A stretch of 62,612 nt of DNA, the filler included, from Rhabdomonas costata (Eukaryota): assembly GCA_019059605.1 (NCBI GenBank). It is 38 parts of 38 records of this genome, joined end to end, with 100 filler letters (N's around TTAATTAATTAA, not from the genome) between each part and the next. Parts side by side here need not be neighbours in the genome. Positions count along the whole stretch, not along the records: positions 42,909 to 44,458 come from JAHMHO010013267.1; 37 more parts are not named here. One strand, 5' to 3'. The notes below the pieces were generated by a model, which searched no databases, was not told the origin of the DNA, and was given only the letters and a program-made list of their open reading frames with translations. The translations under genes and the position numbers were made by a program. Shown piece after piece: positions 1 through 44,458 of this stretch (position 1 is the stretch's first letter; every line of letters begins with the position of its first letter).

Positions 1-172
1 TTGTGGTTATAACGCACCTTCATCTCATTGTGCGTCCACGGTGGAACAGGGTGCTGAACAGATAAATGAGGATCCGACCGAGAATAGCAGGCTTATGGGG
101 GAGGGTACTAATTACGGGATTTAATAGCAGAATTGAATATTTTTTAATGTTAACTCATTTGGTAATTGAGAT

Positions 173-1222
173 ATGAAGTTGGAATACGTCATAGACAGAG
201 TCGATACTTTGGAAGCTGACTGGCAGCAGAAGTTTGCCGAGATGAAGGATGCCTTGACAGGCTTGCAGGAGGGGATCGGGTCTTTAAAGACTGTTGATCT
301 GACACATTTAAAAACCATCGAGTCAGGCGTGCAGGACCAAAAAGGGCAGCTTGCCGCTGTGACAGACTTGCAGGGGCAGATCGATCCACTGAAAACCGAC
401 CTTCAAGCGGTACAAGGGCGAGTTTGCACTTTGGATAGCGCACTCAATGACCATGCGGGACAGCTTGTTGGCGTACATACCAAATTGGAAGGTGTACGGA
501 CACGGGTTGATGCCGTTGAGGCTGCTGTGCGGGAACAGGATCATCGGCTTGCCAGTATAAATAATGCCATTACAACCCTGCAGAGGGATGCTTCAAGGAC
601 TTTTGATCTAACGCGTCTACTAGAGAGTAGGGTGGATGCACTAGAGGGACTCAAGAGCAGAGTAGATACGCTGGAGACATTGAAGGGTAGAGTAGACGCG
701 CTAGAGGGACTCAGGAGCAAAGTAGATGCATTAGAGGGACTGAAGGGTAAAGTAGAGACACTCGAGGGCAAATTTACGGAGTCTGGGAAAGTATTGCCGG
801 ATAGCAAGTACGCCCAGCCCACACCTAGTGTTGGGGCCTGGCATTCTGGCACCTTGTTGCCCGGAACTGGTAGCACAAAGCAAGACTCACCTCAAAGTAG
901 TGCCCCTGCTTACGCAGCGACGTCGAGCCAGGTTGATAGGGTCCCTACAGGGTTGGGGAGTGCCAACGCGGGGTTACCTATCCAGCAGGACAGCGCTGCC
1001 CGTGCCCAGCTGGTGACTGCGCCTGCAGCGCAAATGCAGTGGCCGCTGCCAGCTTTTGGGAGCATTAAGCCTACCTCTCAGCCCCATTATGAGGGCCTTT
1101 CTACCCAGCGACCATACAGTGCTGTCCCGTTGGCTCCCTCCCCATATCCTACAACTACGGCCATGCCATCTTCGACCATGGGTGACGCCAGGCCCTTGGT
1201 TTGGTACGAGAAGCATCTATAG
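173..1222 (+). CDS. Intronless 349-aa coiled-coil protein with Pro/Ser/Ala-rich tail; probably retroelement Gag/ORF1-like
   Basis: Long heptad region and repeated R-h-x-x-h-E motifs (RVDALE, RVDTLE); no introns; followed by LTR-homologous sequence. Confidence 0.6.
   Translation: MKLEYVIDRVDTLEADWQQKFAEMKDALTGLQEGIGSLKTVDLTHLKTIESGVQDQKGQLAAVTDLQGQIDPLKTDLQAVQGRVCTLDSALNDHAGQLVGVHTKLEGVRTRVDAVEAAVREQDHRLASINNAITTLQRDASRTFDLTRLLESRVDALEGLKSRVDTLETLKGRVDALEGLRSKVDALEGLKGKVETLEGKFTESGKVLPDSKYAQPTPSVGAWHSGTLLPGTGSTKQDSPQSSAPAYAATSSQVDRVPTGLGSANAGLPIQQDSAARAQLVTAPAAQMQWPLPAFGSIKPTSQPHYEGLSTQRPYSAVPLAPSPYPTTTAMPSSTMGDARPLVWYEKHL
629..770 (+). repeat. 30-bp coding tandem repeat (about 4.7 units) encoding RVDALEGLKS-type decads
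   Basis: RVDALEGLKS/RVDTLETLKG/RVDALEGLRS/KVDALEGLKG/KVETLEG visible in DNA and protein. Confidence 0.9.
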
Positions 1223-11562: not shown

Positions 11563-13113
11563 GGGTGTTATACCAGAGGTTGGATAAAGAAAAGCTCTTT
11601 GCAAATCCACAAAACTCGACTTCTGGATGTGCATACATGCACTTTTCTGGATTTGCAAAGAGCTTTTCTTTATCCAACCTCTGGTATAACACCCGCAAAG
11701 CTTCTACATGGGCTTCCAATGTCTCCGTATGGACGATAATGTCGTCCACGTACGCACATGTAGTCTCTCGCAGATCCTCAAGAACGAAGTCCATGGTTCT
11801 CTGGAACGTGGGTGGGGCATTACACAACCCAAAGGGCATGACTCTGAATTGGAACGAACCGTACATTGTCTTAAATACCGTCCTCTCCACATGCTCTGGA
11901 TGAATGCGGATCTGATGAAATCCAGCATGCAAATCTTGTTTGGAAAACCACTTCACCTTTCTCGCGTGATCAATCATCTCTTCAATTCGTGGTAAAGGGT
12001 ACGCATCTGTAACAGTAATCGCATTAAGCGGTCTGTAATCAACACACAGCCGCAACTTACCGTTGACCTTTGGAACGAACAGCACCACTGCGCCATAAGG
12101 CGAGGTTGCTTGCTCTATAAAACCAAGCTCCTGGAGACTCTTCAGCTGCTTCCGCAATTCCTCATCTTCCTCCGGGGACATTCGGTACAGCCTCTGGGCT
12201 GGTACCTTACTTTCAGACTTCAAATCAATCCTGTGGTACGTCCTCCTCGAATGGGTAACCCTCCGGGAACTGACGCTGGAAAGATGTGCGCAAATTCTTG
12301 GTTTAAATTCTCGATCTCTGGAGGTGTTGGTAACAACGCACAAGGGGGGCCACAAATGCTGTGGTACACATCTTTAATCAACTTTTCTACCTCCTTTTGA
12401 GGTGAATCTCGCAACTTCCTTTTGACCTTCCACTTCTACTCCTGAGCCCTAGCAATGGCTCGCTGGTCTTGCTTGGTTGGAACAATCTCTTCCACCTCCA
12501 GTGCAGAAACCACGACCTGTGGATGGGACTGTGGATTTGTTTCCGCACCGTGTGGAATGGTCTCCAAAAAGACTCCAACACTTTGGACGTCGGGACTGAT
12601 CGGGACGTCGCCTCCCCGATCCACTGCTATTTTGAGCTTGGGGTAGAACGACCTCTGAACGTTCTGCGGTGGGGCAATCAACGGTTTCACATGGGAAACT
12701 TCCTTTGATCTGCTTCCAACATTGCTGTGGTGGGGCATGTGATTCGAAATGAATCCACTGCTGGAAGCTCCTTGATGTCGTACATTCTTCCTCATCTCCA
12801 CACCTTGACATTTCTGCGCTTCCAATCAATCTGCGGTTGCAGCCTCGTCAAAAACGGATAGCCCAGCACCACTGGGATTGCCGTCTTGATCACTCTCAAA
12901 AGCAATTTGATTGGCATGGTACCCAACCTTCCGACAACTCGGACGAAGTGCGTCACGTGAAGTCCCTCCCCGTTCGCAACCCTCACCGTAAGCTTCTTAT
13001 GCAAAGGGTACCTCTGCAAACGGAATCTCTGGACCAACTCCTGACTTGTAAACGAATCTGAAGCTCCGGAATCCAGTAATGCCCTAACTTGGGTGTTCCC
13101 AATCCACAACCAC
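11563..13113 (-). mobile_element. pol: Ty3/gypsy LTR retrotransposon pol fragment (aspartic protease + reverse transcriptase), disrupted
   Basis: ALLDSGAS protease motif; RT motifs LRLCVDYRPLN, YPLPRI, MPFGLCNAP, YVDD; protease precedes RT; stop and frameshifts lie between the domains. Confidence 0.97.
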
Positions 13114-35726: not shown

Positions 35727-36756
35727 GGAGGGTGGGCAGCAGAGGGTGTTTGTGTGTGTGGCAGCCCGGCCGTGCACAAGCGCTCAGGACAAGGCTGATG
35801 CCGAAGATGACCAGGGGAGGAACGCGGCCTGTGCCCCTTCCCGGCGAGTTCGCTTCTTCATTGTGGTGAGGTGGCGTGCTGGGTACAGGGCCCAGGCGTT
35901 GGGGCCCAGTGAGCCTGGCTGTGTGCAACGGACTGTGGGTTTTCGAACGGTGCAGCTGTCACCGTCTGGATCTTCGAATTTGTTATTTTTCGATCGATTC
36001 TTTTCGTGCACCAAGGTCAAACCAAGGCGCGTGGTACGTCTGATTTCAAATGGTATTCCTTTTGTAACGCCGTAGAAATTCTCGGTTCTAGTTCGGCCAT
36101 GGCACCCCCCCCCCAGCAGTTCAGTTGAGGCACCCCCCCCTATGACCCGAGGCAAGAGGGAAAGTAAGGCACCACACTATCACCATCATCCTTTAGCTAT
36201 CTCGAACACAAAACANNNNNNNNNNNNNNNNNNNNNNNNNNNNNNNNNNNNNNNNNNNNTTAATTAATTAANNNNNNNNNNNNNNNNNNNNNNNNNNNNN
36301 NNNNNNNNNNNNNNNCAAGAACAATCTTGAAAGAGTTCGACGAGGAGAACGCGGTGGAGCAAAGAATTTCCAAGAAGTTCGAAGGATTCCGATGACGATG
36401 TGGTGATGGTCGAGATTGCCGCGGATTTTGAAGAAGATTACGTTGAGTGGAATCTTCAAGACTTTCTACATCGAGTTAAAGAATCAAAAAGGGCTTTGGA
36501 AGTGTTTTGTGGCTTTTTGACCTGACGTGTTAGAGTAGGAGTTTGGTGATTGCGTAAAGCAATGGGTTGATGTTTGGTGTATTTAATTTCTTCTTCCTTG
36601 AATTTGTTTGGGGTTTTGGTTGTAGAGTTGAGTTCGTAGTGTGTGAAGCGTTGGGCGGTGGAGCTGTGTATCGTAAGTCGTGCGGTGTTTGGCTGGTTTG
36701 CCTTGTTTGTACAGTTTGGCTGTTGCTGTGCTCGCCTTGCTTCGACGCACAAGCCT

Positions 36757-37208
36757 GGAATAGGGGAAAGCTGTGAAAGGCCAAAGGGCACACTCACACC
36801 CCCTGAATGGCGCGTGTTAGTTAGAAGGGGCGAAGCAGGCAGTCGAAAGCACACCCCCCACGCGGAAGGGCAGCCCACTCGCAGGCAGTTTGCCAAGAAG
36901 GTAGGGTTTTGGAGTCAAAGCTTGCGCGCCCTCGCACCATCGTAGCCCCGCCACGTTAGCAGGAAGAGAAAGCACCACAACCGTCGGGTCACCGAGGAAA
37001 AGCGGGGGTCGCGAAGGACCCCGCCACGCGCCGCGAAAGGAGGCTGAGTGTATTCAAAGCCAGGTACTTGGTGTATACCAAGATAAGCCCCGGCAGCGCC
37101 CAACGCGCGTCACAGGCGTTCGGGAAGCGGTGAGCCCCAAGCCGGGACCGCAGTCCTGTGAACCCACCAAGACAGGTAGGTGGCCAGGCAGAAGGCTTGG
37201 CCGTCACA
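36757..37208 (+). mobile_element. Polypurine tract (36757-36770) plus 3' LTR (36772-37208, 437 bp)
   Basis: GGAATAGGGGAAAG then TGTGAAAGGCCAA...TTGGCCGTCACA (TG...CA with imperfect terminal inverted repeats); an internal segment of about 44 bp recurs inverted at 39618-39661. Confidence 0.7.
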
Positions 37209-39142: not shown

Positions 39143-39661
39143 GGTTGGAGCTCGATCGGGAGACGTCTGCCCTTAGAAGAACGAAACTTGAGCGCCAACT
39201 GCAGACCTTAACCCGGCTCCCGTCAGAGAAGCGGTGGGAACCCGGCGGGCAAGCATGAGCAAAAAAGAAAAACAGACACTACGTGGAGAAAAACAGAGAC
39301 GAATGCTAAAGGAAGGGGGATGCAGCGCTTCTTCAGGTTCCGTCGCCCTGCCGTATTTGCCGAGCAAGCGCAGGGGAGGTGGACGCGACGGTGTCGCCAA
39401 GTTCCATCACAGAGGCCTGGGGAAAGAGGGGAGGGGAAGTGACGGTAGAGGCGTCGCAAAAACTGCCGCATTACGAAAGCCACAAAATAAAGCGAGTAAA
39501 AACACCACNNNNNNNNNNNNNNNNNNNNNNNNNNNNNNNNNNNNNNNNNNNNTTAATTAATTAANNNNNNNNNNNNNNNNNNNNNNNNNNNNNNNNNNNN
39601 NNNNNNNNTGTGGTTTTGCTTCGCCCCTTCTAACTAACACGCGCACTTCAGGGGGTGTGAG

Positions 39662-40460
39662 ATTAAGAGTGAGAACCAAGGACCCAGATTTTGCGAGAAT
39701 ATGGACAAGAAGTGGGACCACTGTAGCGCTGTGAAGGTCATGTACTATGCAATGTATGCTGTGGACGATGCAGAGTATGGACATTTGGTGGATGGACCTG
39801 TCATACTGAGGTTTACGAGGGAAGATGAAGATCGAAAAGAGGGAAGTGCGCATTGTGTGGTGGAAGAAACCCAAAATAGGATCCACTGGGGTTTCACCGT
39901 ATAGAAGAGCGGATATACAATCGTGTAGGCGATTACATCAGAGTGTCAGAAGTGGAGAATGGGAGATAAGCACAAGAGTGAGACCGTGAGGAGTGATTGG
40001 TCGTCAAAGAACAGTTGGTTTTATTCCTCACAAGCAGGTAAAGTGTCACGGCCCAGATCACGTAGGTTTGACAATAGAGAGAGAAGTCATGTAGGTGTGG
40101 CAAGAGAAGAGTCGTGGAGGTGTGTGGCAGTCCAGAGGAGAAAAAGAGAGGCAGTGTGATGATGAAGAGTGAAGAAAAGGATGCAAGCAATGAAGAGCGG
40201 ATGAGACCAAGAGAAGAAATCGGATGATATCAAGAGATGTTTGGGAGCAGCGGAGCATTCCATTGATCTAGGTTAGAGGGGAGCGTTTTCTCCCAGTTTG
40301 TTTTCAGAAGTCCGTATGATATATACGTCAGAGACAAAGAAGAACATCAAGAACAAGACCTCCGACACGCTGGAGTTCCAGAACATCAAGAAGATCAAGC
40401 AAGAAGAAAGAGAGGAGCGAGGAAGGAAAAACCGACCGACGAAAGAGGAGTGAGCTCCAG
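39662..40460 (+). pseudogene. Decayed homolog of the 42909-44458 ORF
   Basis: DFARIWT / EYGHLVDGPVILRF..EDR / WGFTV*KSGY vs EYGRILT / EYPVVNGPVQARF..ENK / FGSAVKDVY; stops and frameshifts; charged tail; by-eye only. Confidence 0.4.
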
Positions 40461-41677
40461 GAGAGGAGGTGCCATTTCTTCTTTCTTATACTACGGAAGT
40501 GCAGAAGTATTTGGTGTGGTTTGGCTGTGTTTGAGCTCTTTTTGGAACAATCTGTGTGGACGTTTTGGGTGGGATTGTGGTTGTGCCACCGCTCCCTTCG
40601 GAAGCCAAAGAGGAATGAGATAAGAGGACATTTTGGAGGCAGAGTAGCATTGGAATTGCTACTGGACCGTAGGCGGCCCATTTCACCCCAAGTAACCCCT
40701 CCAAGTTTGGCGAAGCAAGGCGGTGAGGTGAAGACCCCCCCCGGCGAATTAGTCCCAGCAAGCTGCGGAGTCCGCAGAAGAACTGTTAAGCGCAAGCAGC
40801 GCTGGCAAGCGAAGTTGTAAAGTGGAAGAGAGTTTAGTCCCATTCCGAGTGTTTGGGGTTAAAGCGACTGCGGCTGCAAGGCGTGTTTGTGGCCATGATC
40901 TAGATAGCTAGCGGCTCTGGGGAACGAAACTCTTCTCATCTAGGTAAGTTGACAGCGCTCGCAAAGCGAAAGCTTTGTCGTGATGGACTTTGGATGGGAG
41001 CAGATCGCGTGGGCTACGCAGGGAAGTTGCAAGAGCCACGAAGTAGAAGTTGGTCCGAGCCCGTAGCGCCGATACTGCCCTTGTGAACGATGGTAGCAGC
41101 GGACTTAAATTTAGGAGATTTAATCATTGCCTTCCATAGGCAGAAATTCAACAAACAANNNNNNNNNNNNNNNNNNNNNNNNNNNNNNNNNNNNNNNNNN
41201 NNTTAATTAATTAANNNNNNNNNNNNNNNNNNNNNNNNNNNNNNNNNNNNNNNNNNNNTGTGGGTTGTGTATAGAAGCTTAGAATTTCGGACTTTTCTTC
41301 GAGCGAAAAGGGGAATAAAAGCGACACGCTTTTCGCTCCCAAACAGCTCAAAAAAAAAGGGGGGGTCTTTTCCTTGTACGTATTGGACTTTATCTGAGTT
41401 CTCACGTTTATCCTGGAGCGAATATTGACATGGAAAGGCAGCGACCGTTCAGCGGTGTTAATCCTGCAAGGGTGCATACCGCTCCGCCCCCCACCCCAAC
41501 CTCCCAAAAAAAAATCCCTCAGAAAAAGCGAAGCAACACGAAACTCGGTGATCAGAACAGATCAGGATGAAGACAATGAACACCGCAAGAGCGGTCCAAC
41601 GCGCAGTCCAGGTGCAACGAGGGCACCCCCATGTGCTCAAGATGCAGTCCAACCGCTGCAGTAGTTCGTAGTTCTAT

Positions 41678-42908: not shown

Positions 42909-44458
42909 CAGCCGGTAGGAGACTTTAATCGTATGGGAAGAGGGTCCGGTTCGAGGTCGTTTTCGGTGGGTATGGAGCGCGGAGAGCTCACACAGAAACA
43001 GATCGAGAGAGATCAGTTGCAGTTGCCTGCAGGAGCGTTAGCGCGTAAGAAGGACCGAGACTACTGGGAGACGCTGAAGTATACACCACCAGGAGATATT
43101 TTGTCGACACCGAGTCCAGTTTTGCCTGATTCTTATCGTATTTCTCCTTTGGAGGGGAGTTTGGTGAGGCTGGAAGAGAGAATGGTCGTATTCAGGTTGT
43201 TGTTAGTACACCCGCACACCGCGATGGACTCAGAGTTTGGGGCGTTTTTCAGAGAAATTCGCTCATTGCAATTGCCAGAAGTGATAAGGCCGGACTCGTA
43301 CTGGGCAGTCGCATTAGAACTTAGGGCGTTGTGGAGAAACCTTCGTGGTATGTTTCCTGAGCACAGGTTGAAGGCAGAGTACGGGAGAATCCTGACAATG
43401 TTGAAGGTTATCACTCCGGAGACGATGCAGTACTACTCTGCTGAGGTACCGGCGTACAAGTTGTTGGCACCGCTTGTAGAGTACCCGGTGGTGAATGGGC
43501 CGGTGCAAGCGAGGTTTTGTTGCAAGTTTGAGAACAAACCAGCATTGTTGTATACGTTGGTCCCAAGGTTGAGGGTGCAGAACGATAGTTTTGGGAGCGC
43601 AGTGAAAGACGTGTACTGGTTTTTCCCTGAGGCTGTGCTCGTAGTACCTCCACAGTGGGCTGATCAGTTGCCGACCTTGGACAGAGGTCTCACGTTCGAC
43701 ATGCCGGAAGCACTAGAACCGGTGGACTCGCCCCAGTCGCAGTGGTGGGGGAGGTTCACACTCACCAAGGAGATTATGAAGGACGGCTTGCAGTTCATCC
43801 GCGGAGATCCTGTTAACAAAGTGTTGGAGATGGCAGAATTCGCATTAGTTTTGTTGAGGAGGAGGGGTTCGTATTATGACATGCAGGTGCATCGCAGCCA
43901 GTGGGGTGTTGTGGGGTGGATGCAAGACGTGTTTTTTGAGTCGTTAGTGCGGTCGGGTTTTGTGACGAAGGAAGTGGTTCTCGAAGTCCATAGGAGGTTC
44001 CCTAAGTTGTATTGCCCAGAAGGAAAGTTGGTCGAGGAGGTTGAACCGAAGGCGTATTTTCCCAGGGCGCCTGGGGTCATGTACCCAGATGGGTATGACG
44101 ACCGAAGGAGGTGGAGGCTGAGGTCGCCGTTTCCCGATAAGGAAAAGCGGTTGATCTCAGATGCAGAGTGGGCCGCAAGCGTCCCGAGTGCTGAGGGAAG
44201 GAAGCGGTTTAGAGTGAGTCGTAAAGAACCACGGGCAGATGGAGGAGATGAGGAAGACCAAGACGACCACGATGAGGGTGATGGTGACGCCCAGGGAGGT
44301 GATGACGATGACGACGATGAGGGAGCTCAATCGGATGCGGCTCAAGGTGAAGAGCAACAGCAGGAGCAGCAAGGTGAACAGATGTCGGAGACGTCAGTAC
44401 CCCCTGCAGAGGAGAACAGGTCAGGTTGCGAAGTGCAGATGGGTTCAAGTTCGTCACC
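42909..44458 (+). CDS. Intronless ORF spanning the whole contig (516 codons, open at both ends); unknown protein with acidic tail
   Basis: No stop from the first to the last base of the contig; globular Trp/Tyr-rich region then D/E/Q-rich tail; no family motif recognised. Confidence 0.8.

Follow-up and report, generated by a model that had tools for sequence, protein, structure and literature searches.

Third ORFs of LTR Retrotransposons

Few of the third ORFs of LTR retrotransposons that do not encode an envelope protein have a domain that can be assigned, and what these ORFs do is still to be settled. Among the described systems closest to the locus reported here, the LTR elements Juno and Vesta of bdelloid rotifers have ORF3s that encode DEDDy exonucleases (PMC5408684). 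As for the element type, DAM-LTR retrotransposons, including a Euglena group, are described in a 2026 preprint (bioRxiv 10.64898/2026.05.21.726589). Regarding the fold, the exonuclease (ExoN) of arenaviruses is described as suppressing innate signalling (PMC7968707).

The DNA analysed, called the window throughout, is a stretch of 62,612 nucleotides from Rhabdomonas costata (GCA_019059605.1) made of 38 unlinked contigs of ~1,550 bp each. One of these contigs (JAHMHO010013267.1) carries part of such an ORF, with the following features:

42909-44458, + strand: middle third (about residues 412-927 of ~1,540) of the ORF3 of a DAM-LTR Ty3/gypsy element, open at both ends, placed by overlaps with contigs C53650 and C5004 and by a length tally
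43014-44183, + strand: conserved orphan domain of ~390 aa, 30-49% identical between subfamilies, with no family, structure or outside homolog found
44240-44458, + strand: linker rich in acidic residues and Gln; in C5004 it is followed by a small conserved block and a predicted DEDDh exonuclease domain

The Complete ORF3

The open frame reported in the initial annotation of this contig is real: it comprises 516 stop-free codons (42909-44456, + strand) and is open at both contig ends; in 2,000 base shuffles of the contig the longest frame had a mean of 131 aa and a maximum of 347, and the observed length is far above chance. The annotation described an ORF of 500+ aa, which holds for the frame but covers only the middle of an ORF of ~1,540 aa, three times longer; similarly, its D/E-rich tail exists as an acidic stretch, but it is an internal linker, as the frame continues for 611 codons in G000:C5004.

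The full length was obtained by tiling. C5004 overlaps the end of the contig over 125/126 nt and reaches the stop after its 611 codons, while C53650 overlaps the start over 126/127 nt and extends it upstream; toward the N-terminus, C80340 is 92% identical to C53650, and C45307, 98% identical to C80340, reaches an ATG. The product read from this ATG resembles the N-terminus of an 868-aa frame in C818. The value of ~1,540 aa is the sum of the piece lengths in a tiling that crosses close copies (92-100% identical) and not a single molecule, with a frameshift in C45307.

From N- to C-terminus, ORF3 consists of a helical N-terminus, a low-complexity linker, the ~390-aa conserved domain, the acidic linker, a small conserved block, a C-terminal domain of ~330 aa and a charged tail; ~350 residues of linker separate the middle domain from the nuclease domain. 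The highest 19-residue hydropathy was 1.1-1.2 in the five pieces that cover ORF3, and the protein is predicted to have neither a signal peptide nor a TM anchor, which sets it apart from an env glycoprotein. An internal duplication relating the middle domain to the C-terminal one was considered and discarded (hhalign probability 0.1).

Searching the same genome at the protein level with the ORF of the contig gave 92 matches out of 111 scored candidates, mostly at 30-50% identity and many with stops, and the C-terminal domain gave 154; both figures count fragments and are lower bounds, not copy numbers. Regarding selection, dN/dS was ~0.07-0.17 for both domains in the unsaturated pairs between subfamilies (dN and dS of 0.149/1.12 for the middle domain, and of 0.024/0.359 and 0.064/0.63 for the C-terminal one), with rows chosen as stop-free pieces, a choice that favours intact copies. 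Distant pairs were saturated, and the ORF3 values were similar to those of the integrase controls. Some very recent pairs were near neutral (dN/dS ~0.8-0.9, for example 0.093/0.107), as expected of decaying copies. These values indicate purifying selection on both domains between subfamilies.

Two further frames were noted. L346, a metagenome contig of 2,224 bp from an environmental sample, is a close relative of the C818 subfamily: it has the same linker and the same nuclease start, and the middle domain is absent between the same flanking motifs. Elsewhere in the window, positions 170-1222 (+ strand) hold an intronless frame of 350 aa in which a heptad-repeat coiled coil gives way to a Pro/Ser-rich part; Pfam returned generic coiled-coil hits only, and the frame may be the beginning of a further retroelement ORF.

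The Host Element

Other contigs of the window contain parts of the same or of a related element:

36316-37208, + strand: 3' part of an LTR (solo or 3' LTR) of ORF3's own family on an unlinked contig; it ends in GGCCGTCACA at 37208, with unrelated flank beyond
39609-39661, - strand: inverted 53-bp LTR fragment of the same family, up to 96% identical to several loci
11564-13112, - strand: parts of a related gypsy element, protease-like and reverse transcriptase (RVT_1, E 5.8e-34), on a further unlinked contig

The order of the element is LTR, PBS, gag, PR, RT, RH, IN, Dam-like domain, splice acceptor, ORF3, PPT and LTR, pieced together from overlapping or closely similar contigs and not read from one molecule; the anatomy as a whole is highly probable. 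The gag matched Ty3_capsid (E 4e-8) and has a CCHC knuckle, the tail of the integrase matched SH3_Tf2-1 (E 5.6e-13) and its D-D-E residues were read; RT-RH-IN-MT pieces lie on C4206 and PR-RT-RH...MT on C822, and C2782 also informs the order. With TG...CA LTRs, a PPT and a PBS, and with gag and PR-RT-RH-IN including a DDE integrase, the element is a Ty3/gypsy retrotransposon; an origin from DIRS/tyrosine-recombinase elements, suggested by the methyltransferase, was ruled out by the DDE integrase and the TG...CA LTRs.

The Dam-like domain is fused through an acidic linker behind the gypsy integrase, and its NPPW motif is present in 5/6 of the aligned rows that cover the site. Its Pfam Dam match reached only E 0.069; judged on the motif and on its place in pol, the element classifies as a DAM-LTR, for which a Dam-like domain with an NPP-aromatic motif is diagnostic. 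C89706, which overlaps the ATG-bearing C45307 over 127/127 nt, contains the end of this domain together with two stops and the acceptor; in sister subfamilies, 11 single contigs have the Dam-like domain upstream of the ORF3 N-terminus. Other part orders occur on some contigs (C1163, C1828 and C13856), which look like deletion or chimeric products.

Downstream of the stop in C5004 there are a UTR, the PPT CCTAGCAGGGGAGGG and the LTR start TGTAACGG; among 30 loci covering this start, the PPT precedes it in 16, unrelated flanks do so in 13, and one starts inside the LTR. The LTR is ~2 kb long, although none of the fetched contigs spans it completely, and its 3' end, GGCCGTCACA, was fixed by 30 loci; beyond it, 10/30 share one PBS-like sequence, GGTAGCAGAGG, the remainder differ, and gag comes next. 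The PBS, TGGTAGCAGAGG, may pair with initiator tRNA-Met; a pattern search of the incomplete assembly for the matching tRNA end gave none. As for 36316-37208, which the initial annotation interpreted as an acidic ORF end, a GT-rich UTR, a PPT and an LTR, this stretch covers the 3'-terminal 890 bp of the ~2-kb LTR of ORF3's own family, because L208 bridges it to the LTR start region and 14 loci match both parts.

Positions of about 200-1,100 of the LTR (L131, L208) are strongly purine-rich on the sense strand, with internal deletions that vary between copies. LTRs of the family also occur inside the methyltransferase, LTR or pol pieces of other copies (L145, L142, L134 and L132), which suggests frequent nested insertion.

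That ORF3 is instead a host gene or a separate repeat, joined to the LTR only in chimeric contigs of an amplified library, is highly improbable. The contigs are indeed short and several are scrambled. G/T-only tags occur at many contig ends, that of 42909-44458 included, and at loose ends in three public runs (X1-X3); they look like the primer of a whole-genome amplification, so some of the scrambled contigs may be library chimeras. However, 11 independent contigs from divergent subfamilies agree in their order, ORF3 ends just before the PPT and LTR both in the overlaps of C5004 and in C2909, and the 92 and 154 matches are dispersed, many of them with stops.

Sister Families and ORF3-less Elements

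One contig of the window belongs to a sister family:

39698-39832, + strand: remnant (last part) of the exonuclease domain, with Lys for the Glu at the ExoIII position
40030-41158, + strand: polypurine tract (to 40043) and LTR from 40044, starting with TGTCACGG, placed by alignment with L310 and L163

The initial annotation had linked the ORF to a stretch at 39662-40460 through ordered motifs (EYGRILT/DFARIWT and others), and these resemblances are due to chance: tblastn of the ORF at E up to 10 did not return the contig with that stretch, and Smith-Waterman comparison of the two in three frames scored 27-32, equal to the 32-35 of shuffled sequences. The stretch at 39698-39832 matched instead the last 48 residues of the C-terminal domain of C5004 (E 2e-6; score 97, with 1,000 shuffles reaching at most 70). 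The PPT/LTR start, tentatively placed at about 40729 by the initial annotation, lies at 40044, with the same boundary motif as in ORF3's own family. Thus the two observations offered in support of the annotation were misread, though its core inference was right and is now directly supported: the element is of the Ty3/gypsy type and carries, between pol and its 3' LTR, a multicopy, intronless ORF3 devoid of TM segments; nor did the middle domain turn out to be single-copy or to hit a known protein.

In this sister family (L163, that is G000:C5468; L310, that is C406; and window positions 39666-41158), only the last 50 residues of the nuclease remain, ~500 bp behind the Dam-like domain and with Lys for the ExoIII Glu, and the family has itself multiplied.

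ORF3-less forms outnumbered ORF3 forms among the fetched loci by 10 to 3 at the acceptor (2 unassigned) and by 12 to 2 at the UTR (1 unassigned), in a sample biased by the choice of queries; ORF3 is therefore not needed in cis. These forms have the same LTR. Several of them (L119, L130, L146, L164 and others; G000:C25378, C22813, C263 and C5619) keep the splice-acceptor-like site after the Dam-like domain and then run into the common 3' UTR, as though ORF3 had been excised immediately after the acceptor.

Candidate Splicing of ORF3

The candidate donor is inside the LTR:

36559-36578, + strand: candidate splice donor, GT at 36572-36573, preceded by T in the window copy

The motif could be located in 22 loci, and 12 of them have G directly before the donor GT. 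An acceptor-like motif, Yn-CAG|GYGCAAG, occurs between pol and ORF3 in 14 contigs from several subfamilies, a count taken without a chance control. The ORF is held in four public runs of one sample, none of which is on record as RNA. The match of one X4 contig (depth 5) begins at the acceptor AG, and the 22-nt overhang that this contig carries upstream lies in the LTR directly before AG|GT; the five exact genomic hits of the overhang all continue as LTR. Contigs of runs X1 and X3 read through the acceptor unspliced. This one contig, from one run of unrecorded kind, hints at an env-like splice from the LTR donor to the ORF3 acceptor; because AGGT is common to donor and acceptor, a microhomology-mediated deletion in the DNA would also explain it. 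A spliced subgenomic RNA is the likely template for ORF3 translation.

The C-terminal Domain

A profile built from 51 genomic pieces retrieved 37 proteins among 1.84 billion, some of them near the copies of this genome and some only 26-28% identical; the ten homologs that were looked up came from ENA and JGI assemblies. The AlphaFold2 model, based on an alignment of 63 rows (28 proteins and 35 genomic pieces), had a pLDDT of 74 and a pTM of 0.81; prediction from the single sequence gave a pLDDT of 35. In a structural search of 48,161 chains, the top 23 rows had Z values of 10.5-8.0 and are DnaQ/DEDD-fold domains; those at Z 10.5-9.2 were the DinG exonuclease, the LCMV and Lassa nucleoproteins (NP), Cas2-DEDDh, Plex9, RNase T, DnaQ and Maelstrom. 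A second structural comparison placed Lassa NP on top (Z 11.2, rmsd 4.0, 160 aligned). Foldseek returned no hit at E up to 0.001, its best being RNase T (1.8e-3), and ranked arenavirus NP with it at the top; in its viral library, small ichnovirus and adintovirus proteins were the best hits. The domain was negative in Pfam, in PDB by sequence and profile, in PHROGs, in a search of longer proteins, in IMG/VR and in prokaryote genomes. Look-alikes among the tyrosine recombinases of the ESM Atlas (at most 141/256 features shared) were overturned by the predicted fold, and one homolog candidate (P0028) was a spurious repeat hit.

Regarding the active site, residues 14-306 of the model aligned with 17-206 of RNase T, bringing D20, E22, H281 and E286 onto D23, E25, H181 and D186, in a register taken from the range offsets that assumes a gap-free stretch between each motif and the ends of its range; these four RNase T residues are those given in PMC3942315. 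Accordingly placed by the model, a putative ExoI D-x-E and a putative ExoIII H-x4-acid are in register, and E206 may be the ExoII residue, judging from its position. Conservation in own and outside rows, respectively, was 6/6 and 6/6 for D20, 7/8 and 5/6 for E22, 23/26 and 18/20 for E206, 16/18 and 8/10 for H281, and 18/18 and 8/8 for E286, and the set is retained even in the homologs that are only 26-28% identical. The candidate ExoII and ExoIII positions are Glu, not Asp, which departs from a strict DEDD; the rotifer ORF3s are DEED, so the acid is kept despite Glu at those positions. The distant homologs P0012, P0031, P0043 and L347 (23-28% identity in the nuclease domain) have all the motif residues; the contig of P0012 was not recovered, and a second metagenome scan gave two contigs, L346 and L347, the latter too short for context.

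On this model, the C-terminal domain has with good confidence a DnaQ-like DEDDh 3'-5' exonuclease fold, while the fold does not pick RNA over DNA, because arenavirus NP, DinG and DnaQ domains lie within 1 Z unit.

Could the domain be catalytically weak or dead, a zinc-stabilised RNA-binding module like metazoan Maelstrom, making ORF3 a scaffold for element RNA? Maelstrom structures scored Z 8.6-9.8, two of the acidic positions are Glu, and E113, H263, H267 and C282, well conserved in own and outside rows, make a possible zinc site by their sequence; C260, checked for an ECHC tetrad, is present in only 8/22 own and 3/9 outside rows. Yet all five active-site positions are kept across homologs that are 26-28% identical, whereas Maelstrom has no DEDD motif (PMC7968707), and this explanation is distinctly unlikely.

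The Orphan Middle Domain

The domain at 43014-44183, searched in Pfam both as a single sequence and as a 33-row profile, gave only weak WSD hits (best E 0.001). Nothing was found in PHROGs, in a PDB profile search, in the ESM Atlas, in IMG/VR, or among 5.8 billion proteins of longer and near lengths, all of which count as weak negatives. The initial remark that the ORF has no recognisable motif is thus true of this domain, but beyond the end of the contig the same frame encodes the predicted DEDDh exonuclease. The domain remains an orphan of 390 aa under selection.

Its position upstream of the nuclease raises the case of a captured viral nucleoprotein-like gene, in which the middle domain would be an RNA-encapsidating core followed by the DEDDh domain, the whole packaging or shielding the element RNA. 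Arenavirus NP is the top structural match of the C-terminal domain, the orphan domain of ~390 aa is suitably placed, and LTR elements capture viral genes at the env position (PMC5408684). Against this, neither PDB (E up to 10) nor Pfam gave arenavirus NP for the 33-row profile, about 350 linker residues separate the two domains, and the best viral fold hits are the small ichnovirus and adintovirus proteins, with no relative in IMG/VR; such an origin is quite improbable.

Proposed Function

The reading preferred here, at somewhat less than even confidence, is that the ~1,540-aa env-position ORF3 of this methyltransferase-bearing Ty3/gypsy element blunts host silencing, as its predicted DEDDh nuclease may degrade dsRNA or small RNA derived from the element. 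The ORF3 mRNA would arise when the transcript that starts in the LTR is spliced past gag-pol; the soluble protein would then use the predicted nuclease on element-derived RNA, with the middle domain, at a guess, serving for binding or as a scaffold so that the nuclease reaches its substrate, and ORF3-less sisters would benefit in trans. Both the RNA substrate and the counter-silencing role are inferred by analogy with the arenavirus nucleoprotein. This role is favoured for three reasons: in its fold the domain comes nearest to that of arenaviruses, which is described as suppressing host sensing (PMC7968707); ORF3 stands apart from pol; and the element can do without it in cis.

With the same anatomy, the nuclease might serve replication, either trimming the 3' ends of the element RNA or primer, or proofreading the cDNA of an unusually long element. 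DinG, DnaQ, RNase T and TREX domains are within about 2 Z units of the best match, 3'-end processing was proposed by Rodriguez et al. for the rotifer DEDDy ORF3s (PMC5408684), and the nidovirus ExoN proofreads (PMC7968707). However, ORF3 stands outside pol as a separate, probably spliced unit, and many sisters share the LTR but lack ORF3, which makes a replicative role rather doubtful.

Returning to counter-silencing, its fullest version would be a protist LTR lineage with an adenine methyltransferase and a spliced counter-silencing gene, encoding an active arenavirus-NP-like DEDDh exoribonuclease and a 390-residue domain of new fold, derived from a virus and lent in trans to ORF3-less sisters; taken with all its parts, this is fairly unlikely. 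If true, a retrotransposon would encode an enzyme that suppresses RNA silencing, with the Maelstrom fold turned against the host. ORF3 also offers a handle on the wider question of third ORFs: a compact predicted nuclease, five named residues that can be mutated and a conserved splice acceptor, with natural ORF3-bearing and ORF3-less sisters that share an LTR and allow comparison.

Comparison with Known Systems

The literature search, to which subscription papers and the supplements of the DAM-LTR preprint were out of reach, returned no report of a DEDDh or arenavirus-like ORF3.

Like the DAM-LTRs of the preprint, the R. costata element has a Ty3/gypsy pol with a Dam-like NPPW domain; unlike them, as far as the preprint describes them, no chromodomain or DNMT was seen after its integrase. 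The main text of the preprint does not use the word exonuclease and, in the parts examined, describes no third ORF; its supplements might list further domains. ORF3 would add a second host-interaction enzyme to these recently described elements.

As for the arenavirus NP, its C-terminal exonuclease (PDB 3mx5, 3r3l, 4o6h) shares with the ORF3 domain the predicted DEDDh fold (best Z 11.2), and also an H-C-x-x-x-acid ExoIII pattern and candidate zinc ligands (PMC7968707); the ORF3 domain differs in its ~15% identity, in a long insertion that follows the first strand, in having Glu at two positions and in being encoded by a retrotransposon. The MAEL domain of Maelstrom (PDB 4ybg, 5af0, 9nhd) has the same predicted fold (Z 7.6-9.8) and a similar layout of candidate zinc ligands; metazoan Maelstrom is a host factor against transposons that has no DEDD, whereas the ORF3 domain keeps the acidic set and is carried by a transposon.

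The closest parallel is with Juno and Vesta (PMC5408684). In both cases Ty3/gypsy elements have, behind pol and before the 3' LTR, a non-env ORF3 with a DEDD-family exonuclease, predicted here; the ORF3s lack a TM segment, are present in some families and absent from relatives, and have no proven activity in either system, and a Cys-His-Cys motif in some of the rotifer ORF3s counts as a further likeness. The rotifer proteins are RNase D-like DEDDy enzymes that profiles detect, whereas the R. costata domain is a predicted DEDDh whose best match is arenavirus NP and which is invisible to sequence profiles; here, the nuclease is at the end of a protein of ~1,540 aa with an orphan domain. Moreover, the rotifer ORF3s showed no significant departure from neutrality within the genome, whereas purifying selection is indicated here between subfamilies. 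In conclusion, exonuclease ORF3s are already known from rotifers, as DEDDy enzymes, and what is new is the predicted DEDDh type, which extends such ORF3s to a distant eukaryote by what looks like a separate capture.
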